From an uncultured Alphaproteobacteria bacterium (GTDB lineage: Bacteria > Pseudomonadota > Alphaproteobacteria > JAJTHO01 > G963706365), in NCBI GenBank assembly GCA_963706365.1, contig OY970150.1, forward strand, positions 1,468,265 to 1,532,264: a stretch of 64,000 bases of DNA, read 5' to 3'. The notes beneath the pieces were generated by a model. It was not told the origin of the DNA. It made no database searches and saw only the letters and a program-made list of their open reading frames with translations. Shown here in pieces: positions 2,574-54,812 of this stretch. Every line of letters begins with the position of its first letter. Position 1 is the stretch's first letter. Made by a program: the position numbers and the translations under genes.

Positions 2574-2978
2574 TTAGCTGCCAAACTTTTCATATAATGC
2601 CGTTTCAATAAAGCCATAGTACCATTCCAGCATTTCTTGTGGCAGGCTGTATTTGTTTTTTTCGGGTGGAATGGCTTTTTTGGCGGGTAAATGTAGAATA
2701 TGTAGTTGTATTTGATAGCAGGTAGAAGCTGATAAACCTGCACGCCAGCAAAGCGCAGTGCAAAGCTTGGGTTTTCTTGTTTTTAACAAATAGTCAACAT
2801 GCTGCTTAGGGAGTTTTAAAACGGTAGAAATTGCATTGATAACAGCCCAGCGATTGCCTTGTATCGCTTCTTTGTAAACAATGTCATTAACGCCTAAAGA
2901 CTCATCAAAAATTGCTGGTTCGGGGGCTTCAAGCTCTTCAAACTCAGCATCAATAACAAGTGGATTCGCATTTTCCAT
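2574..2978 (-). CDS. hypothetical protein (134 aa)
   Basis: Intact ORF divergent from the transglutaminase operon. No family recognised. Confidence 0.35.
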   Translation of the reverse strand: MENANPLVIDAEFEELEAPEPAIFDESLGVNDIVYKEAIQGNRWAVINAISTVLKLPKQHVDYLLKTRKPKLCTALCWRAGLSASTCYQIQLHILHLPAKKAIPPEKNKYSLPQEMLEWYYGFIETALYEKFGS

Positions 2979-3022
2979 AGACCTATCGACAATTATATGA
3001 TTAAGATGTTGAAAAAGTTATA

Positions 3023-4582
3023 ATGCCTTCACGTTTTCATATTATTGCCCTTACACTGGCACTAACCATCATCGGCCTATGGCTGTTTTGGTATAAATAC
3101 AGTGTATTGCGTTACCCTTTAACCCCTGATTCAGAATACCGCAGCTGGTATGTAGAAACCACTTTAACAGCAAGCCCCAAAGCAAATGAACCGGTTACAA
3201 TTCAAATGTGGTTGCCGTCTAAAAGTAATAACCAGCTGGTTAGCTTAGATGAAACGTTCGTAAGCAGTGGCTATGGTATTCAAAAAAAGTTTGATAGTAA
3301 AACGGGCAATCGTTGGGTTATCTTAACAAAGCGCAATTTAAAAGAATCGGAGTCTATTCTCTATCGTACCACCTTGGTTGAGCTGGACTCTCGTGTTGAC
3401 AGACAACAACAATCAGCCATTAGTAGCCTCTATAATCAGGATAATCGCTACCAGCTCAATCTGCCTGATAATGCCCCGCTGTTTATTGCTATTGATTCCA
3501 TTATCGAAGAAGCCCGCTCTCGTTCTGCCGATGAAAGCAGCTTTGCAACAGAAATTTATCAGCTGGCTGCTTTGCAAGATGAGCGTACACGGATTATTTC
3601 TTATGAAGCAGAAGAACTTAAGCAAAATAAAAACTTGCCCCGCGCAGATGCCTTGGCTGTTCTTCTGTTAAACACTGCTGGCATACCGGCACGGTTAGCG
3701 AATGGTGTATTGCTAGCAGAAGGGCAGCGACGCGTATCCATTAATCATTGGACAGAAGTTTGGATAGATGGACGTTGGCAGGTTTTTACAGATAATATTT
3801 TGCAAAGCAAACCTAAGAATTACTTAACCTGGTGGTATGGTTATCAGCCACTTGTGCGCTATAGCGGGGCGCGTAATTTGGATACATTGATATCCGTTAA
3901 ACGCAACCTGGATAAGGCCTTAACCAGTGAATTAGCGGAGCAAAGACAAAACGCCTTGCCTATTCCAACGCTGTACCAGCTGCCGGTTGGCACACAGCTA
4001 ATTTTTGAAGTATTATTACTGATTCCTATCGGTGGTTTGGTCATTGCCTTTTTACGACAAATTATTGGCTTAATAACCTTTGGTACATTTATGCCCGTAT
4101 TGATTGCGCTGGCGTTCAGAGAAACAGGCTTATTTGCGGGTATTGTTTCTTTTTCTATTGTTGTTTTTCTGGGGTTACTTGTAAGAAGTTATTTCCATAA
4201 GTTACAGTTACTACTGGTGCCAAGGCTGGCTGCTGTCTTAACTGTGACCGTGCTTATTCTAATTGCTTTTAGTTTATTGGTGCATGCATGGGGATGGTCT
4301 GTTGGTTTAAGTGTATCTCTGTTCCCTATTGTGATTATGGCGATGGTTATTGAACGGATGGCCTTGCAATGGGATGAATATGGCGCGAAGAAAGCTATTC
4401 ACACCGGGTTGGGAAGTTTATTGGCAGCAGTCATTAGCTATTTTATAATGAACCTGAAAATTGTGGGGCACTTGCTGTTTACCTTTCCGGAATTACTCTT
4501 AGTTATTTTGGCGCTAACGATTATAATGGGGCGTTATAGTGGTTACAAATTAACAGAGTATTGGCGTTTTAAACAATTATGA
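3023..4582 (+). CDS. inactive transglutaminase-like domain fused to a C-terminal 7-TM region
   Basis: Transglutaminase-like core with the catalytic Cys replaced by Ala (LPRADALAVLLLNTAGIPARLANGV ... HWTEVWIDGRWQVFTD keeps the His/Asp positions). The C-terminal ~200 aa contains about 7 hydrophobic helices. The stop overlaps the next gene's start (ATGA at 4579-4582). Confidence 0.65.
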   Translation: MPSRFHIIALTLALTIIGLWLFWYKYSVLRYPLTPDSEYRSWYVETTLTASPKANEPVTIQMWLPSKSNNQLVSLDETFVSSGYGIQKKFDSKTGNRWVILTKRNLKESESILYRTTLVELDSRVDRQQQSAISSLYNQDNRYQLNLPDNAPLFIAIDSIIEEARSRSADESSFATEIYQLAALQDERTRIISYEAEELKQNKNLPRADALAVLLLNTAGIPARLANGVLLAEGQRRVSINHWTEVWIDGRWQVFTDNILQSKPKNYLTWWYGYQPLVRYSGARNLDTLISVKRNLDKALTSELAEQRQNALPIPTLYQLPVGTQLIFEVLLLIPIGGLVIAFLRQIIGLITFGTFMPVLIALAFRETGLFAGIVSFSIVVFLGLLVRSYFHKLQLLLVPRLAAVLTVTVLILIAFSLLVHAWGWSVGLSVSLFPIVIMAMVIERMALQWDEYGAKKAIHTGLGSLLAAVISYFIMNLKIVGHLLFTFPELLLVILALTIIMGRYSGYKLTEYWRFKQL

Positions 4583-5484
4583 TCTGGTACAAACGCTATA
4601 AGGAAAAAGGTATTGTGGGCATTAATGCGCGTAATAGCCGTTACATATTTCCCAATAACAAGCGAAAATATTTTCAGCTGGTTGATGATAAGCTGGAAAC
4701 GAAGACGGTGGCGGTGCAGGCTGGTATTCCTGTGCCTGAACATTATGAGACAATAATATACCAAGCACAGCTTAAGAACCTGGAACAAATTTTAAAACCT
4801 TATCATTCATTTGTTATAAAGCCCGCGCTGGGCAGTGGCGGGCAAGGCATTATGGTTATTGAAAAAAGGCGCGGCGATTATTTTGTAAAAGCCAGTGGCG
4901 ACGCTGTAACCATGGCTGAAGTTCAGCAACATATCAGTAATATTTTGAGCGGCCTATATTCATTAGGTGGGCAAAGCGATAAGGCTATTATTGAATATCG
5001 GGTACAAATCGACCCTGTTTTTAGTGATATTTCATGGAAAGGTGTGCCTGATATTCGGGTACTACTTTATAAAGGCATACCTGCCATGGCGATGCTGCGC
5101 TTACCAACCCGTGCTTCGGATGGTAAGGCTAACCTGCATATGGGCGGTATTGGGTGTGGTATCAATCTAGAAACAGGTATGACGACCACTGCTACGCAAG
5201 GGAATAAATATATTACCACACACCCTGAAACTGACGTAATTTTAAAAGGTCATATTATTCCTGATTGGCAAAATATTCTTAATATGGCTAGTCGTTTTTA
5301 TAGTCTAACAAAACTAGGCTATCTGGGGGTTGATATTGTACTAGATGAAAAACTAGGCGCCTTAGTATTGGAAGTAAATGCGCGCCCGGGTATTAGTATT
5401 CAAATTGCCAATAAACAGGGGCTTGAACCCATTTTACGAAAAATTGATCAATCTATTACTAATATTCACTTAAATATCACATAA
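4579..5484 (+). CDS. RimK-like ATP-grasp amidoligase (alpha-L-glutamate ligase-related protein)
   Basis: ATP-grasp fold motifs (VIKPALGSGGQGIMV, GYLGVDIVLDEKLGALVLEVNARPG), 301 aa. Translationally coupled to the upstream 7TM-transglutaminase gene. Confidence 0.65.
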   Translation: MIWYKRYKEKGIVGINARNSRYIFPNNKRKYFQLVDDKLETKTVAVQAGIPVPEHYETIIYQAQLKNLEQILKPYHSFVIKPALGSGGQGIMVIEKRRGDYFVKASGDAVTMAEVQQHISNILSGLYSLGGQSDKAIIEYRVQIDPVFSDISWKGVPDIRVLLYKGIPAMAMLRLPTRASDGKANLHMGGIGCGINLETGMTTTATQGNKYITTHPETDVILKGHIIPDWQNILNMASRFYSLTKLGYLGVDIVLDEKLGALVLEVNARPGISIQIANKQGLEPILRKIDQSITNIHLNIT

Positions 5485-7001: not shown

Positions 7002-8543
7002 TTATTGCAAAAACCAAAGCTTATTGAGTAATCGGTTCGGGGTTTTAAATATCACTGTTAACGGCTGGCCAGGTTTCCCGATGATGGATTGATGTGTTGC
7101 AAGAATGATTCGAGCATATTGCGGGTTCTGGCTCATTTCTTTAGGCAGGCCGATCATTTGCTGATTGCTGGCACCTTCAATAGCCTTGATTTTTGCTTGT
7201 ATAGTTGTGTTATCTGCAAGTTTAATAACCGCCTGTGTACCAGTAGAAAGTTGCGGAACATTTTGCCAGGAAATCAAAGCCTCAACCGTTGTTTCTGGAT
7301 ATTGTAATACCATTAAAGGCGCGCCTTCTTTTACCCAGCTGCCATCAGCCACTAAAAGTTCGACCGGCTTGCAATCACAAGGGCTATCTAGTTTTATTTG
7401 TTGTAACTGCTGTTCCAGAAGCTCTTGTTTTTTAGAGAAAAAATCTATTTCGGCGTTCACCAATGCTATATCGCGCAGCACTTCATCGGGAGTATCTTTA
7501 TTGTTAAAAATTTCAGCCACTTCAGCACGCTCATTGGCTTCTTGAAGCTGTGCTTTTACTGCTGCTAAGGTTGCCTGTGTTGTTTTAAATTCCTGTTCTG
7601 CTATTTGTAATTGTTCAGCTGTAACATGACCTTTATCATAAAGATTTTCCGTACGTTGATAGGCTTTTTCAGCCTGCTCAGCCATAGCAGTGGCGGCAAC
7701 ACCTTCAGCCAGGCGCTGTTGGCTAACACTTTTGGCGGCTTTGCGCTGATAATAGGCATTACGCCCGGCTTTTTTTAATTGGCTTTCTAATACGGCAAGA
7801 CGCTGCTGTTGTAATTCTGTTTGAATTTTAACGGCTTTTTGTTCCGCCATTAAATCCATGTTTTCAATATGTAATAACGGTTGTCCCTTTTTAAAAGCTG
7901 TGGTGTTCTTCGTGTTTTTAGACAACAAGACACGCCCATCACTAGGGGCTGTAAGGGTTATGGCTGGTGCAGTAATCGCGGCATACGGCGATTCCAAGCG
8001 GAAAAACCAATAATGCAGGTAGGAACCTATAATAAATAATAGGCCTGCTAAAACCGCTAATGCAATAATATGGCGGGTGGGGTGTACTTTGGCATTTGTT
8101 TGTATATCTTGGTTGCGCTGCAGCACAGCCGCGCTGGCAGCAGCTTCTATGCCGCGTACCTGTACAGGAATTTGCTGTCGATAACAATTAACCATATAAT
8201 GCAACATGCCGGCAGTGGCAGGGGAAACATCAATAAATTGAAAGCCAATGTAACCGCCTTCTGTAATGTGCACTACTTCGGCTTTAACGCTACAGTTTTT
8301 TAGTTGCCCTTCATCTGTTGGCAATTGCAGGCGAATATCGACTTGCTGTTTTAAAATATAGCGGTTTTTACGATCTATTATAGCTATGCCCCCTTGCGAC
8401 CAGTTAACAATATGCGCGGGACGCCGGTTAATTAAGGCACCAAAATGCTGTGCCTTGTAACGCTCAAATAAACGCTGGCTACCATTCAGGTGCATCACAT
8501 TGTCATGCTCGTTTTGTGGGTTATCGGCCATATTGGATGACAA
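7002..8543 (-). CDS. Alg44-like co-polymerase: N-terminal PilZ domain, one TM helix, HlyD-type membrane-fusion domain
   Basis: PilZ motifs RxxxR (RRPAH) and NxSxGG (NWSQGGIAI), then the TM helix IIALAVLAGLLFIIGSYL, then a long coiled-coil / membrane-fusion region. Overlaps the upstream Alg8-like gene by 23 bp. Confidence 0.6.
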   Translation of the reverse strand: MSSNMADNPQNEHDNVMHLNGSQRLFERYKAQHFGALINRRPAHIVNWSQGGIAIIDRKNRYILKQQVDIRLQLPTDEGQLKNCSVKAEVVHITEGGYIGFQFIDVSPATAGMLHYMVNCYRQQIPVQVRGIEAAASAAVLQRNQDIQTNAKVHPTRHIIALAVLAGLLFIIGSYLHYWFFRLESPYAAITAPAITLTAPSDGRVLLSKNTKNTTAFKKGQPLLHIENMDLMAEQKAVKIQTELQQQRLAVLESQLKKAGRNAYYQRKAAKSVSQQRLAEGVAATAMAEQAEKAYQRTENLYDKGHVTAEQLQIAEQEFKTTQATLAAVKAQLQEANERAEVAEIFNNKDTPDEVLRDIALVNAEIDFFSKKQELLEQQLQQIKLDSPCDCKPVELLVADGSWVKEGAPLMVLQYPETTVEALISWQNVPQLSTGTQAVIKLADNTTIQAKIKAIEGASNQQMIGLPKEMSQNPQYARIILATHQSIIGKPGQPLTVIFKTPNRLLNKLWFLQ

Positions 8544-10005
8544 TATAGTTTAAGAGATAAATAAACGTAAAACTGACCACCAGTTGAGTGCTAACAGCGA
8601 TAGCCGTGTGCTGGTGTTTTACGGAAAGCAGGCTGTTCAGTTCGGGCAGAATCTGCCCTGTCCAGCCTTGTAATTGCGGGCGAAACACCGCACGCAATTT
8701 TATAACAGCACCGGCAACCTGATTGTAGTACAGCATGATCGGCATAGAAGGTTGCCAATTACGACCCATTATAGTTAGGCTGTAGATTGTACGGGTAATG
8801 AGAACCCATAAAATATAGAGTGTTAACAGCGGAAGAAACGCATAGCCCTGGATGCTTGATAATAATAGCAAAACGGGAGCCGATAAGGTTGTCCACGGTG
8901 CGATAAATTGATCAGCCAGTGACCACCAGGTAAATACTGGCATGCGGTGCGGGCCGATATTAATCGCTTTGCGCCCGGCACGATACATATTGCCGTACCA
9001 TCGGCGCATTAGTGGAATAGTCTGTTGCGTGAAGGAACCCGGTTTTGGTGTTTCCAAACTAGTGACCATTACATCAGGCAAATACAGCATCTGCCAGCGT
9101 CGCTTTAACAGCCATAGCCAACTGGACTTATCCTCGCCTGTTACAAACTTAATGCGCCCATATAGCCAATGTTTGATAGTATCGTGCTGAATTTGTGTAA
9201 TAAATGAATCTTGCGTCACTAAATGCGTGCGAAATACAGAAAATCGCCCTGTTAAAACCAATAGGCATTTTGAAAGTGCCATAGAGCCCATTAACCAATG
9301 CCGCTGGCAATGTTTCAAATTATACCATTGTTGTAACATCGGGTTATCGGGTTGCACGACAGCGCGGTTATTCACTGTTAATGCCCCTAGTTTTTCATTG
9401 GCATAAAAGTAGGGGGAAACTTCTTCAAAGCAACCGTGCGGAATTAAACTATCGCCATCCATTAAAATGGTCAGCCCATTTTGTTGCTCTGGTTGCCGCT
9501 GTAAAGCACGCAAGGCACTGGCCATGGCCGGGCGTTTGCCTAATCCATTTTGTGGCTCCGTGATTAAGCGATTTTGCGCGCAGGGATATTGACGAAACAA
9601 GCTTTCCGCATATAGTTGCTCGTCATGGTTGGTAACGCTGGCAATAATGGTGATAGGGTGGGGGCTTTCTGCCGCCTCTTCAAATAACCTTCTGAAAACA
9701 GCTTCAAAAACAATTTCATCTGTCTGGTAGGACATAATAATACAGTTGATGGGGTAATCATGCGCAGCCTGCTTATACAGACAATCTGTTGCGTTTCTCT
9801 TGATGGCCGGAAAGCGTACGGTGCGATAATATAAAGAGCGCAATAAATGCAGCCCGCCCCAGCTGTAACGCCAAATACCTATAGCACCCAAGGCAAACAA
9901 AACAGCAGGAGGCTGATAGCCTTGTGGCAACATTGCCAGTATGGATAAACATAATAAACAAAGCAAAAACAAACTGATAATAAATTTGGAGAAGCTGCCT
10001 TGCAT
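8521..10005 (-). CDS. Alg8-like processive family-2 glycosyltransferase (polysaccharide synthase catalytic subunit)
   Basis: 494 aa polytopic GT2 with GIWRYSWGG near the N-terminus, DGDS, and an LMRRW (QxxRW-type) motif. Same length as Pseudomonas Alg8, and the gene order matches alg8-alg44. Confidence 0.6.
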   Translation of the reverse strand: MQGSFSKFIISLFLLCLLCLSILAMLPQGYQPPAVLFALGAIGIWRYSWGGLHLLRSLYYRTVRFPAIKRNATDCLYKQAAHDYPINCIIMSYQTDEIVFEAVFRRLFEEAAESPHPITIIASVTNHDEQLYAESLFRQYPCAQNRLITEPQNGLGKRPAMASALRALQRQPEQQNGLTILMDGDSLIPHGCFEEVSPYFYANEKLGALTVNNRAVVQPDNPMLQQWYNLKHCQRHWLMGSMALSKCLLVLTGRFSVFRTHLVTQDSFITQIQHDTIKHWLYGRIKFVTGEDKSSWLWLLKRRWQMLYLPDVMVTSLETPKPGSFTQQTIPLMRRWYGNMYRAGRKAINIGPHRMPVFTWWSLADQFIAPWTTLSAPVLLLLSSIQGYAFLPLLTLYILWVLITRTIYSLTIMGRNWQPSMPIMLYYNQVAGAVIKLRAVFRPQLQGWTGQILPELNSLLSVKHQHTAIAVSTQLVVSFTFIYLLNYIVIQYGR

Positions 10006-10084: not shown

Positions 10085-11368
10085 GTGAAAAGGTATCTTC
10101 CACGCAGTTTATTTGGCCGTATTCTTATGATTATACTGTTGCCAATTATTTTGGTGCAGTTGCTTTCAACCTATTTTTTCCTCGAAAGGCATTGGGATAC
10201 TGTGTCTAGGCGACTAGCTATTTCACTGGCTAATGACATTGAACTGTTATTGAATCTTGAAGAAAATAACACAAAAGCGCAAAAAATACTGCAAGTACGC
10301 ATGCAACCTGTAGAAACAAATTGGCAAAACTTGCCATCTACAGCCAAGCCTTTTGGCTACCCGGCCTTAAAAAAAGAATTGAATAACCGGTTTCCCTACC
10401 CTTTTTATGTAACCAATGCCGGGGAAGATACTCTGGCTATTTATATCAAAAAGCCGGATCAAATTTGGCTATTTTCAGCCAATCACAAGCGCCTGTATAG
10501 TATTACTGTTTATCTTTACGTGCTAATTTCAACAATAATGGCGGTTATTTTAGCGACTATAGCCGTGCTATTTTCTCGTAATCAAATAAGGCCTATTCGT
10601 AGCCTGGCAAAAGCGATGATCCAGTTTGGTAAAACCAATCATGTGGTGCCTTTAAAGCCAAGTGGCGCAAGGGAAATACAGCTGGCTGCCACCGCTTTTA
10701 ATCGGATGCAGCAACGCATTAAAAACCAGGTAGAAGAGCGCACCTTTATGCTGGCGGGCATATCCCATGATTTGCGTACCCCTATTGCCCGCATGAAACT
10801 GGAATTAGCCATGCTACCGGATGAAACGGCTGGCAATTTCAAGCTAGATCTGAGAGAAATGGAGCATTTAATTAATAGCTATATTGAATTTGTAGAGGCG
10901 GGGCAGCATCATCAAAAAGAAGAGATTAGTTTGATAGATCTTTTAGAAGAGAGCATCCAGGATGTTCCTCAGTCAAACAGAGATAAAATACAGCTGCTTG
11001 CAAAGGAAAGTATTAGTGTTAAGCTGGACAGAAAAGCAACAAAGCGCTGTTTCTTAAACATACTATTAAACGCATGTCGCTATGGCAATAAAGTTGAAGT
11101 TTATGTTCAACGTAAAAAGAATTATTGTCGCATTTGTTTTCATAACGATGGTGAATCTATTCCTTTAACCGATCAGGAAAAGATATTTCAACCATTCTAC
11201 TCCGCTGATGGCAGTCATCAGCAAGGGGCTGGTTTAGGTTTGGCAATTTGCAAGGATATTATCGAACGGCATAATGGTATTATCTATGTTAATAATAATT
11301 TTCGCACGGATGGTGCAACAATTTGTATTGAACTGCCTCTAAAAGCTTACCCCAAAACCCACGTATAA
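10085..11368 (+). CDS. sensor histidine kinase, EnvZ-like (2 TM, HAMP, HisKA, HATPase)
   Basis: H-box GISHDLRTPIARM and G-box GAGLGLAICKDIIERHNG. No response regulator is adjacent. The last 5 codons and the stop (PKTHV*) lie in a solo MITE-B-type terminal inverted repeat. Confidence 0.8.
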   Translation: MKRYLPRSLFGRILMIILLPIILVQLLSTYFFLERHWDTVSRRLAISLANDIELLLNLEENNTKAQKILQVRMQPVETNWQNLPSTAKPFGYPALKKELNNRFPYPFYVTNAGEDTLAIYIKKPDQIWLFSANHKRLYSITVYLYVLISTIMAVILATIAVLFSRNQIRPIRSLAKAMIQFGKTNHVVPLKPSGAREIQLAATAFNRMQQRIKNQVEERTFMLAGISHDLRTPIARMKLELAMLPDETAGNFKLDLREMEHLINSYIEFVEAGQHHQKEEISLIDLLEESIQDVPQSNRDKIQLLAKESISVKLDRKATKRCFLNILLNACRYGNKVEVYVQRKKNYCRICFHNDGESIPLTDQEKIFQPFYSADGSHQQGAGLGLAICKDIIERHNGIIYVNNNFRTDGATICIELPLKAYPKTHV

Positions 11369-22662: not shown

Positions 22663-25384
22663 TTAGTCTTCTAAGCTAGAAGCAATTTCTTTCACATCGA
22701 AACATTCAATTTGGTCGCCCACTTTAACGTCAGAATAATTTTCAAAGGCCATACCGCACTCTGTTCCATTACGCACTTCTTTCACTTCATCTTTAAAGCG
22801 TTTCAGGGTTTTTAGCTTGCCTTCATGAATAACCACGTCATCGCGTAGTAAACGAACACGACAACCACGTTTGATGGTACCATCGGTAACAATACAACCC
22901 GCAATATTGCCTACTTTGGTAATATTGAAAACTTCCAGAACTTTGGCGTAGCCAAGGAAATTTTCCTGCAAAGTTGGGTCTAACATACCAGTTAACACCA
23001 TATCAATATCATCCATCAAGTTGTAGATGACAGAGTGATAGCGCACATCCACTTCATCGCGCTTGGCAACTTGGCGGGCTTGGGGGTTGGCACGTACGTT
23101 AAAGCCAACGACAATGGCATTACTAGCTTTGGCCAACACAACATCACTTTCGGTGATAGCACCAACGCCACTGTGAATAACTTTTACACCTACTTCATCA
23201 TTACCCGATTTTTGCATGGCTGCATTAATCGCTTCTAAAGAACCATGCACGTCTGTTTTAACAACAAGCGCCAGGTATTTTTTACCGTCTGCAGCAGCGG
23301 CAAACAAGCTATCAACGCTTTGTGCACGCATGGCGGCGGCTTCTTTTTCGCGAATCTGACGCTGGCGAAACTCTGATATTTCTCGTGCTTTTGCTTCAGA
23401 ATCAACGACAACCAGCGTTATCACCGGCTTTTGGTGTGCCATTCAGGCCTAACACAGCAATCGGCATCGCTGGAATCGCTTCGTTGTGGCGTTGATCATC
23501 TTCATCTAACAAGGCACGCACACGCCCCCATTCCGTGCCAACAACAAAGATATCTCCCACCCGCAAGGTTCCACGCTGTACCAGAACAGTGGCAACAGAA
23601 CCACGCCCTTGGTCTAACTGTGATTCTACCACGATGGCTTCGGCGTTGCGGTTCGGGTTTGCTTTTAGTTCGAGTACTTCGGATTGCAGTAAAATTGCTT
23701 CTTGCAATTTATCCAGGCCTTCGCCGGTTTTTGCAGAAACAGGAACAGACATTACTTCACCGCCCATTTCTTCAACAACAAGTTCATGGCTTAATAAATC
23801 GGAACGTACTTTATCAACATTGGCACCCGGCGTATCAATTTTATTAATAGCAACAATAATAGGTACACCTGCTGCTTTTGCATGGTTTAGGGCTTCTATG
23901 GTTTGTGGCTTGATGCTGTCATCTGCTGCAATGACCAAAATAACGATATCGGTCACATTGGCGCCACGTGCCCGCATTTCGGTAAAGGCCGCATGGCCAG
24001 GGGTATCAACAAACGATATTTTTTCACCGTTATCTGTTTCAATCTGATAGGCACCAATATGTTGTGTGATACCTCCTGCTTCACCATGGGCGACACGTGC
24101 TTTACGCAGCGCATCCAACAAAGACGTTTTACCATGATCAACATGCCCCATAATGGTAACAACAGGCGGGCGTGGTTGCAGGTCTTCGGCTTCATCTTCG
24201 CCAGAAATCAATGCATCTTCCACATCAGTTTCAGCCACTCGTTTTGCACTGTGACCCAGCTCTTCAACAACAAGCTCAGCTGTATCAGCATCAATTGTTT
24301 GTGTGGCCGTAGCCATAATGCCCAGCTTCATTAGCTCTTTTACAACATCGGCTGTTCTCTCGGTCATCCGATTGGCCAGCTCTTGTACAGTAATGGTTTC
24401 TGGCAGAATAATTTCGCGGTAAACTTTTTCTTTTAGAACGGTGTCACCAGTTTTGCGGCGCTCTTTTTGTTGGCGACGACGTGCAGAGGCTAGACTATGG
24501 GTTCTATCATCTCGGCCATTGAGCACGTTGTTTAAACTTAAGCGACGTTGACGACGTGGCTCTATACGGCGTGCTACAGCAGCGGGACGGGCATGCTCTT
24601 GTTCGCTTGCTGGGCGGGCATTCGGGCCAAAATTAGCTTTAACTTTAGCTTGACGCTCTAGCTCTTGCTTATCTTTTTCCTGTTTTGCTTCCTGTTCCCG
24701 TTCTTTACGTGCTTTTTCAACCTGGGCACTTAAGTCCGGTTTATCGCGGCGCACAATACGCCGCAATGGTGTTGTAGGAATTGTAGAAGTTGTTTTTCTT
24801 GGGGCCACAACAGGTGTTTTTGGTGGTTCTGGAACCACGGCCATTTCCTTGGCGGCAGCGGCAAGCTCTTGGGCTGTGTCATCAACCTTGATATTTAGTT
24901 TAACTTTTTCCGGCTTTGCCTCGGGTTGCGGGGCAGGTTGCTCGAATGCGGTTTTAATTTCTGTGTCAACCGGTTTCGTTTCTTTTTCAGCTGCTGGCGC
25001 ACTTTGCTCTACTTTTTGAATGCCACGCAATTGCTCTGCTTGTTTTGTTTTGGGTGCATCGCCGGAATCAATGTTTTGTAGGGCTTTTAACCGCGTTGCC
25101 CGCTCAGCCGGCGTTAGGCGAGCTAGTTCTTCAGAAATCTGGTTGCCGTCGGCATCAACTTCTTTTTTATCAGTAGGGGCTGTGATGGCGGGTGTGAACG
25201 TCGGCTTTAACCCCCCTGCATTGGCCGGGCGCTGCAATACACTACGCTTACGTTTTACTTCAACAGTGACAGTGCCTGACCCAGCACGTTTATTTAGGTC
25301 AATCGGCTTTTTTAAACCAAGGGTTCCGCCGCTAATGCTTAGCGGTTTTTGGGGGTTGTTATCTTTTTTATCGCTTGCGCTCAT
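22663..25384 (-). CDS. infB: translation initiation factor IF-2, split by an apparent frameshift near 23416
   Basis: ORF 23402-25384 encodes the N-terminal, G and part of the beta-barrel domains and ends ...[18 protein letters not shown] 22663-23442 continues ...[13 protein letters not shown] in another frame. The join is aac-g-ctg. Confidence 0.85.
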
Positions 25385-27025: not shown

Positions 27026-27875
27026 TACCCGAGTCTCAACACTGATTTAGCCTGATATAGAAATTAAAACTAACCTTATCTCGCCTTAAACATTATTCGT
27101 GTTACATACAGCTATTAACTTTAGTTTTGATTGCTTGAATTATCGGGTTGATTGCATTTATAGAACAGCATGAAATTACTCAATATACTTATAGGTTCAT
27201 TCTTCCTTTTGTCTTCCTGCAGCAATTCTACTCAGTACCAAGAGGTAATACGCCTTTCAGCCGAAGGGACACCAGAAGAACTTCGTAGTGAAATTGTTGC
27301 GGAGAGTATCGAAAATATTTCTACAATTCGTTTTGGGCGCAACTATAGTCTTATTCATATTGCTATTGGTAACCAGTCTTATCCGGAGGTGATTCGCGTT
27401 CTCCATGACTTTGGTGCAGACTTAAACGCCCAAGATGATGATTTACGAACTCCTTTAGACTATGCGGTAGACAATGATAATGCAGAATCAGCACGCATCT
27501 TACTCGAACTTGGTGCTGACCCTTTAAGCAAAAATATTGCTGAGGTCAACGTAATCGAGTCCTGTAAGAACGTTGTTCTTAGAGACTTTCCAAATCACAA
27601 TACTTGCAACGTGATTCTGAGTTTGGCAGGTAAACAATAACCTTATCTAAAACGTTCTACTATGGGCTTGTTCGATTTTTCGGGACTAAATTCTGGTCAG
27701 ATTACTGGCTTAGTACGACTAGCTGCCGCTTCTTATGATGGTATTGCACCTCCTGGTTCAAACAGTATATCTTTATGATAATTTCTTCCTGATTCATCGC
27801 TTTCCTGCCTTTCTTCAAAAAACAGCCTAGTGGTGAATCACCTCTTTTTTATATCTGGTTGTTGAGACTCGGGTA
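27026..27875. mobile_element. about 850 bp cassette bounded by perfect 16-bp inverted repeats (tacccgagtctcaaca), carrying the ankyrin lipoprotein gene
   Basis: Left IR 27026-27041, right IR 27860-27875 (reverse complement). The cassette sits between rho and yggS. Confidence 0.45.
27170..27640 (+). CDS. ankyrin-repeat lipoprotein
   Basis: Lipobox LLSSC. Two or three ankyrin repeats (LIHIAIGNQSYPEVIRVLHDFGADLNAQDDDLRTPLDYAV...ARILLELGADP). Confidence 0.7.
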   Translation: MKLLNILIGSFFLLSSCSNSTQYQEVIRLSAEGTPEELRSEIVAESIENISTIRFGRNYSLIHIAIGNQSYPEVIRVLHDFGADLNAQDDDLRTPLDYAVDNDNAESARILLELGADPLSKNIAEVNVIESCKNVVLRDFPNHNTCNVILSLAGKQ

Positions 27876-37322: not shown

Positions 37323-39485
37323 ATGCGCATAAACCGATATCTAAAAATTTTGCTGCTACTAACCTGCCTTTTGGTGGGTGATTCGGCATGGGCGCAATCT
37401 TGTTCCAATGGTAGTATTGATTCGTTAGATGAATTATTTGCAGGGGGTGTAAACTCAGCTGCAGCTATGGCAACCTGTGCCGCAGAAGGGAATTGCACGC
37501 CCTGCAATGGGGGTGCGGGTTGCTACTTTGGTTACAAACGTGGATCTAACTGGCAGGTTCATTCTGATAGGTTGGATAGCAACGGATATGCTAATATGGG
37601 ATATTGTAGCTTACAACGACGCAGTAACCCCAGCGGTACACCTCAAGGTGCTGATCAAATATGTTATGAAAATGCTGCACGACGTGTGAATAATATCAAG
37701 AGCGTCTTTCAAAGTAGGAATATTGACCCTGAGCAAAATGTAGGATGGGTTATGACGGCTGTAGACATGTTGAACCAATTTGGAGAGGGTAATAAAGGTT
37801 TATTAGAACAATATGCTGATTTATTAGTTATAGCGCAGGACAAAGGTTTGACAGGGCCTGATGCTGCATTATTTGCACGTTATAATTCATGTTATGAACC
37901 AAATTCTGGTAGATGGGCTTGTTCGGCATTTAATGAAACAACTGGTTGTACGAATCAAAATAAACATGTTAGTCAAATAGCAAGTGTTCTAAAATCTGTT
38001 TGTGCTGATTATGGTGGTGCTGGGGGTAGTGGAGGCACTGTAATAGACGCGCCAGAAACTGCAAATCCATGCCAGTTCCAACCAGTTTCTGGTGATTATA
38101 GCGGGTCGAATACCTATCAAGAACCAAAATATGAACCTGAAAAAATAGAATTCCTAACCTGCTGGTCATGCAATTTAATTGAAACAATTATGCTAACTGC
38201 TGGCACACTTGGCGAGCGTATATTTGATGCCCTGAAGGGAGGATTAAAAGATATTATTCTAATAGTCGCAACGATTATTATCCTGTTTAGTATTTTTAAA
38301 ATGTTACTGCCATTTGGCCCTTTAGAGCAAGGTCGCCAGATGTTAAACCGCATTGTTGCTGTCATCGGTGTCACAAGTATTTGTATGCTTTTGCTATCTT
38401 CAATGGATTTTTACTGGAAATATATTTACTGGCCGGTGCTAGACGGTGCAATGAAAGCGTCACAATTAATCATTTCTGAAAGTGATGATGCCAATATTGA
38501 TGATTATGATAAATCAAAATACGAATATAATGATCTTGATCCGACATCAGAAGAGATAAATAAGGCTATGGCCGCGCAAATGACAGATACTGTGCGCGAT
38601 ATTAACGAAGCCCTTAGTAAAGGCGCGGCTGTTGGTTGGGCGATGTTGTCTTCTATTTACAATTATAATTTTACCAACTGGGTTACGGGCATAGCAAATT
38701 TCTTTCGGGTATTATTACTGGTATTTAGTGCCGCAATTTTAATGGCGGTGTCCTTTTATGCCAGTTTTGTCTTTTTATATGTGGTTATTGATGTGGCTAT
38801 CCGTTGGACATTTATGAGTGTTTTGGCGCCATTTGCCATTGCCGCCTTTGCTTTTCCGCAAACGCGAGGCTTTGTAAGCTTTTTAGGGCGTGGATTAATG
38901 GAATCGGCCACTGCGCTTATTTTGGTAACTGCTGTTGCCGGGTTATCGATGCAAATGATTGAACAGGTGCGCATAGATCCGCGTAGTTATGATGATCAGG
39001 GGCAGGAAAAATCAAGCGAATACAGCCAATATAAAATGACCTCTTCTTCAGATGATGATAGTTTCAAGGAGTATATTAAAAAAATTCAGGAAGGTAAGGC
39101 GCTTTCCCCCACCATGAATACAACCGCTTTTTGGCACATGACAACCATGTTTATGATTGTGGGGGGATTAATGTTTAAAATGTCTGGTGTGGCCAGCTTC
39201 TTGGTTGGTTCTGCGGTTGGTGTTGGTGTTGCTGCCACAGCTGCGGCCTTCACGGGTGGTGCAACGGCGGTTGCCACGGCACCAATGAAGGGCGGCGATC
39301 AAATAAAAACAGCTTTGGATAACGTTGCCAAAGGGGAGATGTTAAGGCAACAACAGGAAAAAGATAAAGGGGGAGGGGATGATCAGAAAGATGATGCCCA
39401 GCAGAAAAATGATTCTGGAGGCGGAGAAGCCGCATCTGCGCCCGCTGAAGCCCCTGAACCTGCCTCTGTAGGTGCCGGTTCATGA
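37323..39485 (+). CDS. large secreted Cys-rich polytopic membrane protein, VirB6/TrbL-like (paralog 1)
   Basis: Signal peptide (...GDSAWAQ). About 250-aa Cys-rich N-terminal domain, at least 6 TM helices, the motif FKMLLPFGPLEQG after the first helix, and a Gly/Ala-rich C-terminus with an acidic low-complexity tail. ATGA overlap with the next gene. Confidence 0.4.
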   Translation: MRINRYLKILLLLTCLLVGDSAWAQSCSNGSIDSLDELFAGGVNSAAAMATCAAEGNCTPCNGGAGCYFGYKRGSNWQVHSDRLDSNGYANMGYCSLQRRSNPSGTPQGADQICYENAARRVNNIKSVFQSRNIDPEQNVGWVMTAVDMLNQFGEGNKGLLEQYADLLVIAQDKGLTGPDAALFARYNSCYEPNSGRWACSAFNETTGCTNQNKHVSQIASVLKSVCADYGGAGGSGGTVIDAPETANPCQFQPVSGDYSGSNTYQEPKYEPEKIEFLTCWSCNLIETIMLTAGTLGERIFDALKGGLKDIILIVATIIILFSIFKMLLPFGPLEQGRQMLNRIVAVIGVTSICMLLLSSMDFYWKYIYWPVLDGAMKASQLIISESDDANIDDYDKSKYEYNDLDPTSEEINKAMAAQMTDTVRDINEALSKGAAVGWAMLSSIYNYNFTNWVTGIANFFRVLLLVFSAAILMAVSFYASFVFLYVVIDVAIRWTFMSVLAPFAIAAFAFPQTRGFVSFLGRGLMESATALILVTAVAGLSMQMIEQVRIDPRSYDDQGQEKSSEYSQYKMTSSSDDDSFKEYIKKIQEGKALSPTMNTTAFWHMTTMFMIVGGLMFKMSGVASFLVGSAVGVGVAATAAAFTGGATAVATAPMKGGDQIKTALDNVAKGEMLRQQQEKDKGGGDDQKDDAQQKNDSGGGEAASAPAEAPEPASVGAGS

Positions 39486-41071
39486 GCCGCTTAATCTGTG
39501 CGTTTATTCTTATACTAGGGCTTTGGGTTCCTGCAATGCAGGCCGAAGCACAGAATAGTGGGCAGAATTGCCAAGTATTTAGAACTCCTGAACAAGTCGC
39601 GGCTTGTGAGGCGGGCAGAGCAAATCCAAATTCCCAGCCAACGCAAAATACGGATCCGCCTACAGATGAAAGCGATGTGCCGCAGTGTTTTACTGTTAAA
39701 GATAAGGTCAAGAGAGCTGCTTGTGAATCTGATCGAGAAAAAGCCCTTGCCCTGGTTGAGGCGTCAAAAAATGAATGTGTGGGATGTGCAGTCGCTGAGG
39801 CATTCTTAGTAGGTGCTATGAACCTAAGTGTGGGGATGAGCGATGCCCTAGGTGATACAATGATTCGATTGGCTATCGTTATTTTTATTGTTTGGTTAAT
39901 GTTTCAGGTGGCCAAAATGCTTTTACCTTTTGGCCCACTTGATAAAAGCCAGAAAACACTAAACTTAATTGCCACCAAGCTGGGTATTATGATGTTTATT
40001 GTTGTGGCCTTGCAAAGCTTGCCAGTTTACGAGCGTTTAATGTATGGTGTTATTGACGGCGTTATTGGTTTTAGCGGTGTTATTTTGGAAGCCACAGCAG
40101 ACTATAGTGGCCAGGTAACAGAAGCCGTTGTGGAAAGCGGTAAAGCCGATGGCACCATCGATAAAGATGTTACCTTTAATCGGGATACCGTGCAGGTGCG
40201 TAGCGGCAATGATGCTTTTACCGGCGCGGGTGCTATTGATGCCAATGCACCAACAGAAGCGCTGCGCCAAAACCTGATGGACAATCTTAATAACCAGATC
40301 AGTTTAGTACAACGAACCATTGAAGAACCCTTGTGTATCGGCATGCAGATTCTGGGTTTTGACGAAAGACAATGTTTTGCTGGCCGCACGGAAAGTGCGC
40401 GCACCGTGGGAGACTGGATAACGGCAACTCTTAAACAGGGCTGGAGAACATTACAGTCTATTGATAATGGCCTTAAATATTTAAGCCGATTAGAGCAGGA
40501 CAGAGATCAGGCTATTAATGAGTTTATGTTAAACTTGATTGCCGCCTTCATTTTAATTGCTGTTTATGGACTAATCTGGTTAAAGTACCCGCTGGCTTTG
40601 CTGGATGTTGTTTTAAGATGGGCGGTCATTTTAGTATTGTGGCCTGTAGTGGTTATTACGCTAGCGTTTCCACTGTTGCGCGGTACCACAGTTACCTTGT
40701 TAAAAGGCTTTGCGAACGCCTGTCTGGAATTGGTTTTTCAGGCCATTATTGTGGGTGTAGTTGTCTCGATCGTGCAACAAATTGTTGCAACAACGGATAT
40801 TAGAGATTTCGCGTTATTGGCATCAGCTGACTCTTCCATAAACTCCTATACCTTACAGCGCGGTACATACATTATGATCATTCTTTGTGGCTTTATGATG
40901 CTGCACCTAATGAAGCAAGCCCCACAATTTGCTGCCATCTTCATTAGCAGCACGATGGATACAAAAGTTGCTGCTGGAATCTGGAACCAGGTAACCACTT
41001 ATTTCTGGATTGCTGCTGATGCTGCAACCGGTGGGATGACACAGGCAAGGAAAGTTATTCCGATTAAATAA
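39482..41071 (+). CDS. secreted Cys-rich polytopic membrane protein, VirB6/TrbL-like (paralog 2)
   Basis: Signal peptide (...PAMQAEAQ). About 100-aa Cys-rich N-terminal domain, the same VAKMLLPFGPLDKS motif, and multiple TM helices. Confidence 0.4.
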   Translation: MSRLICAFILILGLWVPAMQAEAQNSGQNCQVFRTPEQVAACEAGRANPNSQPTQNTDPPTDESDVPQCFTVKDKVKRAACESDREKALALVEASKNECVGCAVAEAFLVGAMNLSVGMSDALGDTMIRLAIVIFIVWLMFQVAKMLLPFGPLDKSQKTLNLIATKLGIMMFIVVALQSLPVYERLMYGVIDGVIGFSGVILEATADYSGQVTEAVVESGKADGTIDKDVTFNRDTVQVRSGNDAFTGAGAIDANAPTEALRQNLMDNLNNQISLVQRTIEEPLCIGMQILGFDERQCFAGRTESARTVGDWITATLKQGWRTLQSIDNGLKYLSRLEQDRDQAINEFMLNLIAAFILIAVYGLIWLKYPLALLDVVLRWAVILVLWPVVVITLAFPLLRGTTVTLLKGFANACLELVFQAIIVGVVVSIVQQIVATTDIRDFALLASADSSINSYTLQRGTYIMIILCGFMMLHLMKQAPQFAAIFISSTMDTKVAAGIWNQVTTYFWIAADAATGGMTQARKVIPIK

Positions 41072-43434: not shown

Positions 43435-45686
43435 TTGCGCCTTTTGCATAATATGTCTATAGACAGCACAATGGCAGAAACCACTGAAACGCAACAAAAA
43501 ACTCCGAAGACTCAATTAGATACGCATGTAATGGATTCAGGCTTGATATGCCTGGCTATTATGGCGAAAGTATTGGGTAAACCGGCTGATCCGGAACAGT
43601 TGCGCCATCTAAGCGGGCGGGGCAGTGGGGAAATGGATACCAATACATTATTGCGTCTTGCAAAAGATATTGGCTTTAAAGCACGCCTAATGAACACCTC
43701 TTGGGAGAGGTTGAATAAAGTAGAATTACCGGTTATCGCGCAACACCAATCAGGGGAATATTTTCTCTTGGCGCAAGTTGGAGACGATAAAGTTGCCGTG
43801 CAAGAACCACGTAGCCAGCAGGTAAAAATTCTGGATAAAGAAGCCTTTATGGCGAATTGGAGCGGTGCGTTATTATTATTAACCACCCGGGCGCAACTGG
43901 CTGGTGAAAACCGCAAGTTTGGTCTTAGCTGGTTTATTCCCGCCATTCATCGCTATCGTAAAATTTTAAAAGAAGTTTTAATTGTTTCTTTTATTTTACA
44001 ATTGTTTGCGCTGGCAACACCGCTATTCTTTCAGGTCATTATTGATAAAGTTCTGGTGCACCATAGCCTGAATACCCTGAATATTATGATTATTGCCCTA
44101 TTGTGCGTATCATTTTTCGAGGCCGTTTTAGGCGGGCTAAGAACCTATATATTTACCCATACCAGTAACCGTATTGATGTTGAACTGGGGGCAAGGCTAT
44201 TTAAGCATATGCAGAATTTACCCATTCGCTATTTCGCTAGCCGAAGGGTAGGGCATATTGTGGCAAGGGTACGAGAACTGGAAGGCATCAGACAATTTCT
44301 AACCAGCTCCAGCATTACCGTGTTAATCGATAGCTTCTTTACCATCGTGTTCTTAATTGTGATGTGGTTTTACAGTAAAAACTTGACACTATTAGTGCTG
44401 TTAACGTTGCCATTTTATATTGCGTTAACCTGGTTTATTACCCCGGTTCTACGCCGTCGACTAGAAGAAAAATTCATGCGCGGTGCTGAAAATCAGGCTT
44501 TTTTGGTTGAAAGTATCAGCGGTATTGAAACATTAAAATCTAGCGCTATTGAACCACAGTCACAGCGAAAATGGGAAGAGTTACTGGCAGGTTACACAAG
44601 CTCAGCCTTTAAAGCCTCGCACACCTCTAACATTGGCCAACAAGGCGTGCAGCTGGTTAATAAGGTATCAACTGCATTGGTTCTGTGGTTCGGTGCCACT
44701 TATGTTATTGAAGGCACACTAACTGTTGGGCAACTTGGTTGCCTTTAATATGTTGGCCAGTCGGGTGAGTGGTCCTGTTATGCGTTTTTCGCAATTGTGG
44801 CAGGATTTTCAGCAGGCTAAAATTTCGATTGATCGTTTAGGCGATATTTTAAACTCGCCGCAAGAACCAACTATTAAGGCTGGCTCAGTGACGCTTGCCG
44901 CCTATCAAGGGTGATATTAAGTTTGAAAATGTTACGTTCCGTTATCAACCAGATGGCGCAGCGGCTCTGGATAATGTTACTCTTAAAATACCGGCCGGGC
45001 AAGTAGTCGGTATTGTCGGCTCTTCCGGTTCAGGAAAAAGTACGTTGGCTAAACTGGTGCAACGCATGTACATTCCTAATAATGGCCGTATTATGGTGGA
45101 TGGCGTTGACTTGGCGATGGCTGATCCTGTATGGTTGCGCCGACAAATCGGTGTGGTTTTACAGGAAAATGTTTTGTTTAACCGTACAGTGCGTGAAAAT
45201 ATTGCGCTTATCTAACCCGGGCATGGATAGCGAGCGCGTTATTGCCGCAGCAAAACTGGTTGGCGCGCATGAGTTTATTTTAAAATTGCCGCAGGGTTAT
45301 GACACTATTTTAGATGAACGTGGCGGCAATTTATCTGGCGGACAGCGTCAGCGGCTGGCTATGGCACGGGCCTGGTAACCAACCCGCGCATTCTGATTTT
45401 AGACGAAGCAACTTCGGCCCTGGATTATGAATCGGAACGGATTATTCAGGATAATATGTCGAAAATTGCGCACAATAGAACTGTATTAATTATTGCCCAC
45501 CGACTTTCCACTGTGCGCACCGCTGATAAAATTATTACGATGGAAAATGGTTGTGTTATTGAAGAAGGTTCACACGATGAATTGTTAAAACCGGCGGACG
45601 TTATGCACAATTGTATAGTTATCAGACCGGAGGGCGAGATGCTTAGTAAAATGTATTCAATGCCTGATATGAGACGTATTCAATGA
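43435..45686 (+). pseudogene. type I secretion ABC transporter (HlyB-like, C39-like domain + TMD + NBD), fragmented
   Basis: Intact N-terminal 437 aa, then NBD pieces in 4 ORFs (44726-44914, 44895-45215, 45013-45378, 45456-45686) in different frames. Walker [10 protein letters not shown] and signature LSGGQRQR are recognisable. Confidence 0.7.
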
Positions 45687-47107
45687 GTTTTGCATTCAAT
45701 CGATTGGGAAAAATATACTACGCCTGGAAACATGCCGGCGAGATAGAAAAAGAAGAAAAAAAAGCAAAAGGCAATCAAAGCGCCACAAGGATGAATTACA
45801 GTTTATGCCGGCCGCGTTGGAAGTGCTTAGAAACACCGCCATCGCCCACAGCACGCATTACTCTGTGGCTAATCATTATCATTTTCTTGCTTGCTATTGT
45901 GTTGGCAACTATCGGTAAAACAGATGTGGTGGCCACTGCTGCTGGTCAAATTATCCCCTCTGGCCGACGTAAAGTTATTCAGCCGCTGGAAACATCTAGG
46001 GTACAAAATATTTATGTTGAAGAAGGCCAGTTCGTTGAAAAAGGTGAATTGCTGATTGAACTGAACCCGGTTGAAAGCACCGCAAATAAGCACCAGCTGG
46101 ATGATAATCTGCAGAAAAAACGAGCTGGATGCCATTCGGTTAAAAGGTATTACAGAATAACCCTGCCTATCCCAAGGCAGATTTTCCACCAGATACGCCC
46201 GGCCAACATTGTAAAAGCCCAGCAAATTTTAATGCGCTCGCAAGCTTCTGAATATCGTTCACAGCTAGCCAACCTTCAGCAAATCGAATTACTCAGGAAA
46301 ACTCACAAGCGCGTGCAATTCGGGCGGAAATCGATGCGTTTGCGAAAGTGTGTTACCGGATATCAGGCGCGGCTTGAGCAACAGGAAAGTCTTGATTGAA
46401 AAGAACTCTGACAACCCGTACACAGCTGTTGCGCGTAAGGCAGGAAGTGAATGACACGAGCAATCAGATTAATGTGCAGCGGCAATTGCTGGCACAAGCT
46501 AATGCTGCAGCGCAAACAGCACGACAGGAACAAGAAAGTTATATTAATCAATATCAAAACCAGCGTCTGGAAGAATTGGCCGAAGCAGAAGCTCGTATTT
46601 TCGGGCTAGAGCAGGAGGTTATTAAGGTGGACGCTAAAGTTGCGGCCTTAAACTGATGGCACCAACAAATGGTGTGGTGCAGGAATTAAAAGTTAGCACT
46701 GTGGGTGGGGTCGTGACACCGGCGCAAGAACTTATGTATGTCGTGCCGCAAGATGCTGTTTTGGAAGCGCGTGCATTGCTACCTAATAAAGACCGTGGAG
46801 CGGTTGGCAGAGGGCGATATGGCCAATGTTAAAGTGGAGGCTTTTCCCGTTTACACGTTACGGTACGATTCCCGCCAAACTAAAAACAGTTTCCAGCGAT
46901 GCTATTCAGGATGAAAACCTGGGACCTGTTTTTGCGGTTATTGGCACGCTAGAGCGCGATTATGTTATTAGTGATGAAGGGGAGCGTATTCGTTTAACCC
47001 CCGGCATGGCTGTAACGATGGAAATTAAAACAGACGATCGCCGTATTATTGAATTTATTCTAACGCCAATTATTAAAGGCTTTAAGGAAGCTGCAAGAGA
47101 ACGTTAA
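45683..47107 (+). pseudogene. type I secretion membrane fusion protein (HlyD-like), fragmented
   Basis: Three or more ORF pieces (45683-46399, 46396-46656, 46826-47107) with coiled-coil and beta-barrel segments. Confidence 0.65.
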
Positions 47108-53543: not shown

Positions 53544-53909
53544 CTAAGTAGAATATAATTTCAGAATTCGCTTAGACAGGAGGTTAATGTCGGCAATAAA
53601 GAGTCTAGAGCGGGAGGTATCTGGATTATGTTCGTAATCTTTGGAGAGGCGTCTTTGCCAGTTGATCCAGCCGAAGAAGCGTTCGACAATCCATCGTTTT
53701 GGTATAACAATAAACTTTTTGCTATCAGGGCGTTTGACGACTATCAGGCGTTTCCCCCGGCTTTTGCGGTAGAACCATGTTTGCAGTTTGCCGCTATAGG
53801 CACCATCGGCCAAAACAGCCTGTAACCGGGGCTGTTTGTACAATTCTGCTAGTAGCGGTTTGGCGCCGTCCCTGTCTTGAACGCCAGCGCTATGCACGCT
53901 TGCCGCCAT
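53544..53909 (-). CDS. IS5-family transposase OrfB (DDE region)
   Basis: LADGAYSG ... ERFFGWINWQRRLSKDYE. Confidence 0.75.
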   Translation of the reverse strand: MAASVHSAGVQDRDGAKPLLAELYKQPRLQAVLADGAYSGKLQTWFYRKSRGKRLIVVKRPDSKKFIVIPKRWIVERFFGWINWQRRLSKDYEHNPDTSRSRLFIADINLLSKRILKLYST

Positions 53910-53932
53910 CAGATGGCCGGTGATATCAACAA

Positions 53933-54662: not shown

Positions 54663-54745
54663 TGGTACTCGAGGCGAGACTCGAACTCGCACGACCGAAG
54701 TCATCAGATTTTGAGTCTGACGTGTCTACCATTCCACCACTCGAG
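54663..54745 (-). tRNA. tRNA-Leu (anticodon CAA)
   Basis: On the minus strand: ctcgagtggtggaatggtagacacg, then the anticodon stem-loop tcaga ctCAAaa tctga, a long variable arm, then gttcgagtctcgcctcgagtacca. Confidence 0.8.
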
Positions 54746-54812
54746 CAATTGTTTGTTGGGTATAATCTAAAAATTTGGAAAGCTCAATGGCTATCAGCAG
54801 TGTTAAAGCAAT

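Follow-up and report, generated by a model that had tools for sequence, protein, structure and literature searches.

A divergent alphaproteobacterial rloB–rloC pair without a linked rloA protease gene

We analysed a 64,000-nucleotide stretch of an uncultured alphaproteobacterial chromosome (contig OY970150.1 of assembly GCA_963706365.1, positions 1,468,265 to 1,532,264 of the forward strand; the whole stretch is called the window) and found in it two overlapping genes that, judged by homology, are an rloB–rloC pair, corresponding to genes two and three of the Pseudomonas aeruginosa rloABC operon. RloB sits in the inner membrane and is made of an anchor helix, a beta-sandwich, a transglutaminase-like fold without its catalytic triad, a seven-transmembrane (7TM) bundle, and a basic tail, and RloC is predicted to be a cytoplasmic ATP-grasp ligase of the carboxylate-amine type, whose nucleotide and metal motifs are intact and which has a putative ability to ligate glutamate. 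The module is already known and widespread, with at least 594 species returned in one scan, and the locus is a divergent, rloA-unlinked example of it, not a new system; beyond the missing protease gene, nothing at the locus is unusual.

The operon was named rloABC in P. aeruginosa by Lormand et al. (mBio 2025, PMC12239564), where RloB is PA14_41710 and RloC is PA14_41730. RloA is a secreted retropepsin-like protease that cuts runs of glutamate in vitro, and P. aeruginosa carries two further, unlinked rloA paralogues (PMC12239564). The triple rloA1-3 mutant does not grow in low-salt medium and also has biofilm, beta-lactam, and cell-shape defects, and deletion of rloB or rloC fully rescues its osmotic defect and partly rescues the others (PMC12239564). 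Because deleting rloB or rloC suppresses the lethality of the rloA1-3 deletion, RloB and RloC would act upstream, producing what RloA must remove. The Vibrio cholerae operon ranks with the genes that respond most strongly to induction by VxrB, a regulator of the response to cell-wall damage (PMC12239564), and disruption of an rloB-type gene (inactive transglutaminase plus 7TM) in Shewanella vesiculosa leads to more membrane vesicles (PMC12096838). These two reports overtake an earlier note on this DNA, written from the letters without database searches, which had called the gene pair experimentally uncharacterised. Our literature search found no paper on the Rlo system later than PMC12239564.

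The features of the pair are listed below, numbered from the first nucleotide of the window (ORF, open reading frame; AF2, AlphaFold2; TM, transmembrane).

3023..4582, plus strand: rloB-like gene, 519 amino acids (ORF map, Pfam, NCBIfam NF052267, AF2 model)
3032..3103, plus strand: N-terminal signal-anchor TM helix, residues 4-27 (AF2 helix; hydrophobicity peak at residues 5-23)
3143..3382, plus strand: periplasmic beta-sandwich, residues 41-120 (six AF2 strands; Foldseek match to 3ISR together with the next domain)
3470..3910, plus strand: transglutaminase-like domain without the triad, residues 150-296 (Pfam Transglut_core; no Cys; helices and beta-strands in AF2)
3980..4531, plus strand: 7TM domain, residues 320-503 (PF14402; the best-conserved part of RloB)
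4532..4579, plus strand: basic cytoplasmic tail helix, GRYSGYKLTEYWRFKQL (short amphipathic C-terminal helix; conserved; the shortest tail in the family)
4579..4582, plus strand: ATGA stop/start overlap of rloB and rloC (read from the sequence)
4579..5484, plus strand: rloC-like gene, ATP-grasp ligase, 301 amino acids (ORF map, TIGR02291, PF14397)
2979..3022, no strand assigned: divergent intergenic region of 44 bp, the site of rloA in relatives (ORF map and sequence)

Predicted architecture of RloB and RloC

The ORF map and the junction sequence agree with the earlier reading of two ORFs joined by an ATGA overlap. At the junction (CAA TTA TGA TCT GG in CAATTATGATCTGG), the stop codon of the first gene and the ATG of the second share these four bases, implying that rloB and rloC are translationally coupled. 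The family assignment proposed for both genes is likewise correct, given their matches to Pfam, NCBIfam, and TIGR02291 profiles. For the first gene, which had been read as a transglutaminase-like core fused to a C-terminal 7TM domain, these are PF14400 Transglut_i_TM (3e-24; 86 bits, cut-off 25; residues 24-186), PF01841 Transglut_core (2e-06; residues 211-255), and PF14402 7TM_transglut (6e-85; 285 bits, cut-off 25; residues 276-519 on profile positions 2-247 of 248), together with an end-to-end alignment of residues 5-518 to NCBIfam NF052267, "osmotic stress tolerance membrane protein RloB" (318 bits).

The AF2 model of full-length RloB has a mean pLDDT (predicted local distance difference test) of 84.8 and a pTM (predicted template-modelling score) of 0.76. 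From hydrophobicity, the positive-inside rule, and this model, we infer a topology with the N terminus inside, a periplasmic domain, seven TM helices, and the C terminus inside. A Foldseek comparison with the PDB matched the periplasmic part to 3ISR of Cytophaga hutchinsonii (E = 3e-9, probability 1.00, target-normalised template-modelling score 0.53) and weakly to TglA. As in 3ISR, which represents the transglutaminase-like cysteine proteases, a beta-sandwich precedes the transglutaminase core, whereas RloB has no triad in register, is fused to a 7TM bundle, and shows no sequence-level match; neither the RloB family profile nor the transglutaminase-like domain alone matched any solved structure by sequence. 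The 7TM domain, modelled alone with a pLDDT of 80.8, found no relative among solved structures (best Foldseek E = 1.1).

The periplasmic domain is predicted to be catalytically dead as a thiol enzyme. There is no Cys among the 519 residues of RloB, so the loss of the thiol nucleophile is independent of any alignment, and 198 of the 200 family members in a 200-sequence alignment have no Cys in this domain. The register of the triad was set by aligning RloB to canonical transglutaminase-like proteins from Hyphomonas loci (L052, L055, and L061; GVC...GFPAR...GHAWAEAW...GWVGFD). The column of the catalytic Cys is then a gap between L205 and P206, the segment being deleted in most relatives, and an insertion private to the window RloB, NLPRA (residues 204-208), lies at the former Cys site in columns that are gapped in at least 191 of 200 relatives. 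N241 occupies the column of the catalytic His (W243 minus 2), with H242 one residue late and a His at the H242 column in just 32 of 200 relatives. The column of the catalytic Asp (W252 plus 4) corresponds to a gap/T256, with D257 one residue late and an Asp there in 149 of 200 relatives. As aligned, the window RloB is without the whole Cys-His-Asp triad in register, and the family overall keeps the Asp only. The earlier note was therefore right to call the transglutaminase inactive, since there are zero cysteines and realignment restores no catalytic Cys. The replacement of this Cys by Ala that it described does not hold, as the Cys column is the gap and not the Ala of RADALAV, and the His and Asp that it regarded as kept are both one residue out of register.

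Conservation is concentrated in the membrane, with a mean identity to relatives of 59% in the 7TM part vs 33% in the periplasmic part. Invariant positions of the 7TM part comprise R345, Q346, TFGTFMP (352-358), E367, R388, P400-R401, LFP (433-435), E444-R445, E452, and FPELL (488-492), and the invariant charged residues and prolines sit within the membrane helices and at the cytoplasmic face. By this conservation, the 7TM domain and the cytoplasmic face are the probable functional core of RloB, not a passive anchor. The tail is marked by invariant G503, Y505, K509, E512, Y513, R515, and F516, and after this motif the window RloB has "KQL" only, where the family median is 18 residues. Across the alignment, Glu is the commonest last residue (35 of 133 sequences with a recognisable tail), and the tails contain much Ala, Glu, and Lys. 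Such Glu-ended tails weakly recall the Glu-ended substrate of RimK, ribosomal protein S6, and the window RloB is nearly tailless. The idea that the RloB C terminus is the substrate of RloC, by analogy with S6 and RimK, was rejected here, with tails being variable and the window tail ending in "KQL".

For the second gene, the ATP-grasp family matches are PF14397 ATPgrasp_ST (1e-84), a family that Pfam describes as "sugar-transfer associated", and TIGR02291, "alpha-L-glutamate ligase-like protein", at 382 bits (curated cut-off 314; residues 5-296 on profile positions 5-296 of 317), the latter being, like Transglut_i_TM and 7TM_transglut, a comparison that the earlier note had proposed. As a single sequence against solved structures, RloC found at best the ATP-grasp domain of cyanophycin synthetase (E = 0.0025), a likeness limited to the nucleotide-binding core. 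A family profile built from 27 RloC-type sequences ranked RimK structures first (7QYS, 5ZCT, and 4IWX; E about 1e-7, 32-34 bits), followed by cyanophycin synthetase and the tubulin polyglutamylase TTLL7. These nearest solved relatives (RimK, a poly-alpha-glutamate ligase, cyanophycin synthetase, and TTLL7) are all amino-acid-adding, polymer-forming ATP-grasp enzymes. The alignment to RimK spans the ATP-binding Lys, the Gly-rich loop, the NLHxGG motif, and the D..E.N metal ligands, and the family-invariant residues of RloC are K81, the Gly-rich loop 85-90, N185-L186-H187-x-G189, D252, E265, and N267.

RloC also resembles the RimK/RimB system (S6 poly-alpha-L-glutamate ligase plus a retropepsin-like trimming protease) in that, in most species, the ligase is paired with a retropepsin-like protease. 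It differs in scoring 48 bits against the RimK family model TIGR00768, under the cut-off of 143, and in having no RimK N-terminal domain, because the alignment pairs RloC residue 25 with RimK residue 86; a conserved basic N-terminus of 30 residues stands in its place. Further, a membrane partner is obligatory for RloC (80 of 80 loci), and the Rlo protease is secreted, not cytoplasmic (PMC12239564). The label "RimK-type" given to it earlier is thus apt for a distant kinship only; RloC may fairly be called RimK-like in fold and chemistry, and it stands outside the RimK family proper.

Both proteins look functional, keeping about 97% of the positions conserved in their families: among positions conserved at 95% or more, RloB keeps 63 of 65 and RloC 70 of 72, each within the normal range for family members. 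They are at the same time divergent. The nearest relative of RloB is 49% identical, its named relatives come from Rickettsiales or alphaproteobacterial metagenome-assembled genomes (MAGs), and both RloB and RloC are singletons when clustered at 90% identity.

Relatives' loci and the missing protease gene

For comparison, relatives were collected in the scan at one genome per species that returned the 594 or more species given above, and 80 loci were kept, of which 76 had enough upstream DNA for upstream genes to be counted. The ligase gene lies immediately downstream of rloB in all 80 loci, each from a different species. Upstream, rloA directly precedes rloB in 58 of the 76 informative loci, stands elsewhere in 1, and is missing from the fetched flanks of 17. 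The upstream gene of the relatives encodes 150-230 residues with a signal peptide and KLDTGA...LIGR motifs, belongs to PF05618 by precomputed Pfam, and scores higher with the NCBIfam RloA1/2/3 models than with RimB. When neighbouring ORFs of the 80 loci were clustered, rloA was the sole further conserved partner, and no fourth emerged.

The window pair therefore shares with P. aeruginosa rloABC its two-protein architecture and gene order, the full-length alignment of RloB to NF052267, the membership of the ligase in TIGR02291, and, among its relatives, the gene for an RloA-type secreted retropepsin directly upstream. It differs in four respects. No rloA lies beside the pair or anywhere in the 64 kb; the 318 bits of the window RloB do not reach the narrow, Pseudomonas-level cut-off of NF052267 (900 bits, an exception-level model), so that under the NCBI naming rule the protein is a homologue and not a Pseudomonas-level orthologue; the organism is an alphaproteobacterium, not a gammaproteobacterium; and RloB has the shortest tail in the family plus the five-residue insertion at the former Cys site.

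A motif scan and an RloA profile, made from the relatives' RloA ORFs and run over six frames of all 64 kb, found no rloA in the window (best E = 3.9), and a profile search of a 5.8-billion-protein collection returned none from the window's 1,867,446-bp contig among the best 120 of 2567 matches. The earlier note had pointed to a retropepsin-like protease as a third partner to be looked for elsewhere in the genome; such a partner exists, normally as the gene immediately upstream (58 of 76 relatives), and none is present in the 64-kb window. The intergenic region at 2979..3022 has room for a promoter and a ribosome-binding site only. A weak promoter-like match at 2972-3001 was no better than those from shuffled sequence, and promoter and terminator scans for operon signals at the pair did not rise above shuffled controls. 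The place where relatives have rloA is held by a 134-residue ORF (2574..2978, minus strand) that is divergent from rloB, with an acidic N-terminus and a sub-threshold match to DUF2336 (24.7 vs 34.6 bits).

All the nearest alphaproteobacterial relatives (L002, L003, and L005-L010) have rloA. The 17 species whose rloBC lies more than about 10 kb (fetched flanks) from any rloA include members of the Steroidobacter group (L023, L037, L057, L059, L062, and L080), Chromatiales and related gammaproteobacterial MAGs (L025, L026, L047, L068, L069, and L078), and further loci (L011, L012, L049, L076, and L077). Because these species span several lineages, the protease-unlinked arrangement has arisen repeatedly.

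Candidate roles for the pair

In the mechanism that we favour, RloC would work at the cytoplasmic face of RloB and use ATP to join amino acids, most probably L-glutamate, into oligo- or poly-glutamate or to attach them to an acceptor that bears a carboxylate. The RloB 7TM domain would then pass or present this product to the periplasm, where the dead transglutaminase-like domain may serve as a binding module, not as an enzyme. In most species, the secreted RloA encoded immediately upstream would trim the product, and in the window genome, with rloA unlinked, trimming would presumably fall to an unlinked paralogue, or the product may stay untrimmed. The physiological output would be envelope homeostasis, i.e., osmotic tolerance, cell shape, and wall integrity. 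We give roughly an even chance to the central claim, that the RloC product is exported or displayed via RloB and trimmed by RloA where RloA is present.

Export fits the available evidence because of the P. aeruginosa epistasis, the periplasmic location and poly-glutamate specificity of RloA, and the polymer-forming nature of the nearest relatives of RloC. A functional analogy, and no more than that, may be drawn with the poly-gamma-glutamate synthase PgsBCA, in which a cytoplasmic ligase is coupled to membrane partners that carry a polyanionic polymer of amino acids out of the cell; PgsB itself belongs to the Mur-ligase type and not to the ATP-grasp enzymes.

We acknowledge several points that count against export. 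RloC is remote from RimK (34 bits with the profile; 48 vs 143 with the family model) and may act on a substrate other than glutamate. The word "exporter" rests on conservation and on genetics done elsewhere, because the 7TM domain resembles no solved transporter. Finally, a locus without rloA is unexpected if the RloC product is toxic without RloA, as it is in P. aeruginosa, and at the window locus it is chiefly the missing rloA that fits export poorly. The genome may hold no rloA-type protease at all, and RloB and RloC would then be self-sufficient, with a glutamate-containing product kept as a periplasmic or surface polyanion in a probably host-associated organism, a reading that we consider unlikely.

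A first alternative retains the ligase and dispenses with export. RloB would be a 7TM sensor whose dead ectodomain binds a periplasmic ligand and switches RloC on or off, and RloC would polyglutamylate a cytosolic protein in the manner of RimK-type signalling. An extracytoplasmic ligand-binding domain followed by seven TM helices is a common layout of bacterial receptors, the ectodomain has kept its fold without catalysis, the conserved cytoplasmic face and tail of RloB could dock RloC, and RimK, the nearest solved relative of RloC, tags ribosomal protein S6. However, RloA has a signal peptide and cleaves poly-glutamate (PMC12239564), so its target should lie beyond the cytoplasm; conservation is far higher in the membrane helices than in the would-be sensing domain, which is unusual for a sensor; and RloC has no RimK N-terminal domain. 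On balance, receptor-controlled tagging seems to us improbable.

A second alternative places the pair in cell-wall synthesis, with RloC modifying a peptidoglycan stem peptide, or some other lipid-linked envelope precursor, by adding an amino acid, RloB flipping or scaffolding this precursor, and the transglutaminase/NlpC-P60-like fold binding stem peptides. The phenotypes point in this direction, since P. aeruginosa rlo mutants show altered shape, beta-lactam sensitivity, and lysis at low osmolarity (PMC12239564), the V. cholerae operon is induced by VxrB (PMC12239564), and the Shewanella rloB-type mutant over-vesiculates (PMC12096838); the sugar-transfer name of the Pfam ligase family leans the same way. 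Gene neighbourhoods and specificity do not. The conserved neighbours of the pair include rloA only and no peptidoglycan or polysaccharide gene, the neighbours in the window recur in none of the 80 loci, RloA is specific for runs of Glu and not for stem peptides, and in fold the 7TM bundle resembles neither MurJ nor other flippases. Modification of a wall precursor is, in our assessment, decidedly unlikely.

That rloBC is a decaying remnant, unused since the loss of a linked protease gene and turning into pseudogenes in a shrinking genome, is highly improbable: rloA is indeed missing here and present in every nearest alphaproteobacterial relative, the genome is small (1.87-Mb contig), and other genes of the window look broken (infB, which is in two parts, and a C39-ABC exporter gene that is cut short), but neither ORF of the pair is truncated, the two are translationally coupled, their retention of 63 of 65 and 70 of 72 conserved positions within the normal range argues against decay, and 17 other species from several lineages also carry rloBC without rloA within about 10 kb.

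Setting of the locus and wider meaning

Upstream of the pair lie trpE (TIGR00564) and accD (TIGR00515), both above their equivalog cut-offs, and downstream a Tad/TadG-like protein. The position assigned to the pair in the earlier note, between a trpE-accD block and a TadG-like vWA protein, is thus borne out, with the reservation that the vWA match of the latter falls below its cut-off, and "inserted", the word it used, applies in the positional sense only, as the guanine-plus-cytosine content of rloBC is similar to that of its surroundings and no mobile element flanks it. The trpE, accD, 134-residue ORF, TadG-like, PilZ-HlyD, and GT2 glycosyltransferase genes stand next to rloBC in 0 of the 80 other species, and a functional link of the pair to its window neighbours was rejected, since none recurs. 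A defence-system identity was also rejected, as PADLOC anti-phage models gave no match for RloB, RloC, or the two flanking ORFs.

The window is otherwise an ordinary piece of chromosome, carrying secA, rplA/rplK, metK, infB, rho, gyrB, tig, argG, and purB. Its GyrB shares no more than 69% identity with any other sequence, the named matches being Rhodospirillales-type alphaproteobacteria, and the organism may reasonably be described as a small-genome, possibly host-associated alphaproteobacterium. A 156-residue ankyrin-repeat protein (27170..27640, plus strand) is encoded amid the housekeeping genes; such proteins are common in host-associated bacteria. The infB gene (IF-2; 22663..25384, minus strand) is split into overlapping ORFs of 660 and 259 residues, and near 23410-23420 a one-base shift is needed after ...GDN (GAT AAC G CTG GTT), which points either to a frameshift within this essential gene or to an indel from assembly.

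Further observations concern genes away from the pair. At 7002..10005 (minus strand), a GT2 glycosyltransferase gene (494 residues) overlaps one for a PilZ plus HlyD-type membrane-fusion protein (513 residues), whose order and architecture, those of Alg8-Alg44, suggest an exopolysaccharide synthase controlled by cyclic di-GMP; a HAMP histidine kinase gene follows at 10085..11368, and in other species the GT2/PilZ-HlyD pair is unlinked to rloBC. A peptidase-C39 plus ABC-membrane protein (437 residues) without an ATPase domain is followed by ABC_tran (121 residues) and HlyD-like (238 residues) fragments at 43435..46399 (plus strand), an arrangement suggestive of a bacteriocin-type exporter that has been disrupted, or else of more indels from assembly. 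An IS4/IS5-family transposase occupies two consecutive ORFs, DUF4096 then DDE (53544..54322, minus strand), a layout typical of frameshift-expressed IS5-group elements, and adjoins tRNA-Leu(CAA) at 54663..54746. Two adjacent large ORFs at 37323..41071 (plus strand; 720 and 529 residues, four-base overlap) have no Pfam match at E <= 0.001.

Together, these data add a divergent alphaproteobacterial rloBC, with both proteins under clear constraint though rloA is unlinked, to a system that in P. aeruginosa affects biofilm formation and cell shape as well as tolerance of osmotic stress and sensitivity to beta-lactams. The conserved 7TM bundle and cytoplasmic face, the triad-less ectodomain, and an RloC without the RimK N-terminal domain may each serve as guides to experiment. 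If the genome indeed has no rloA anywhere, the protease would be a regulatory add-on to RloB and RloC, and not the obligatory detoxifier that P. aeruginosa genetics suggests.

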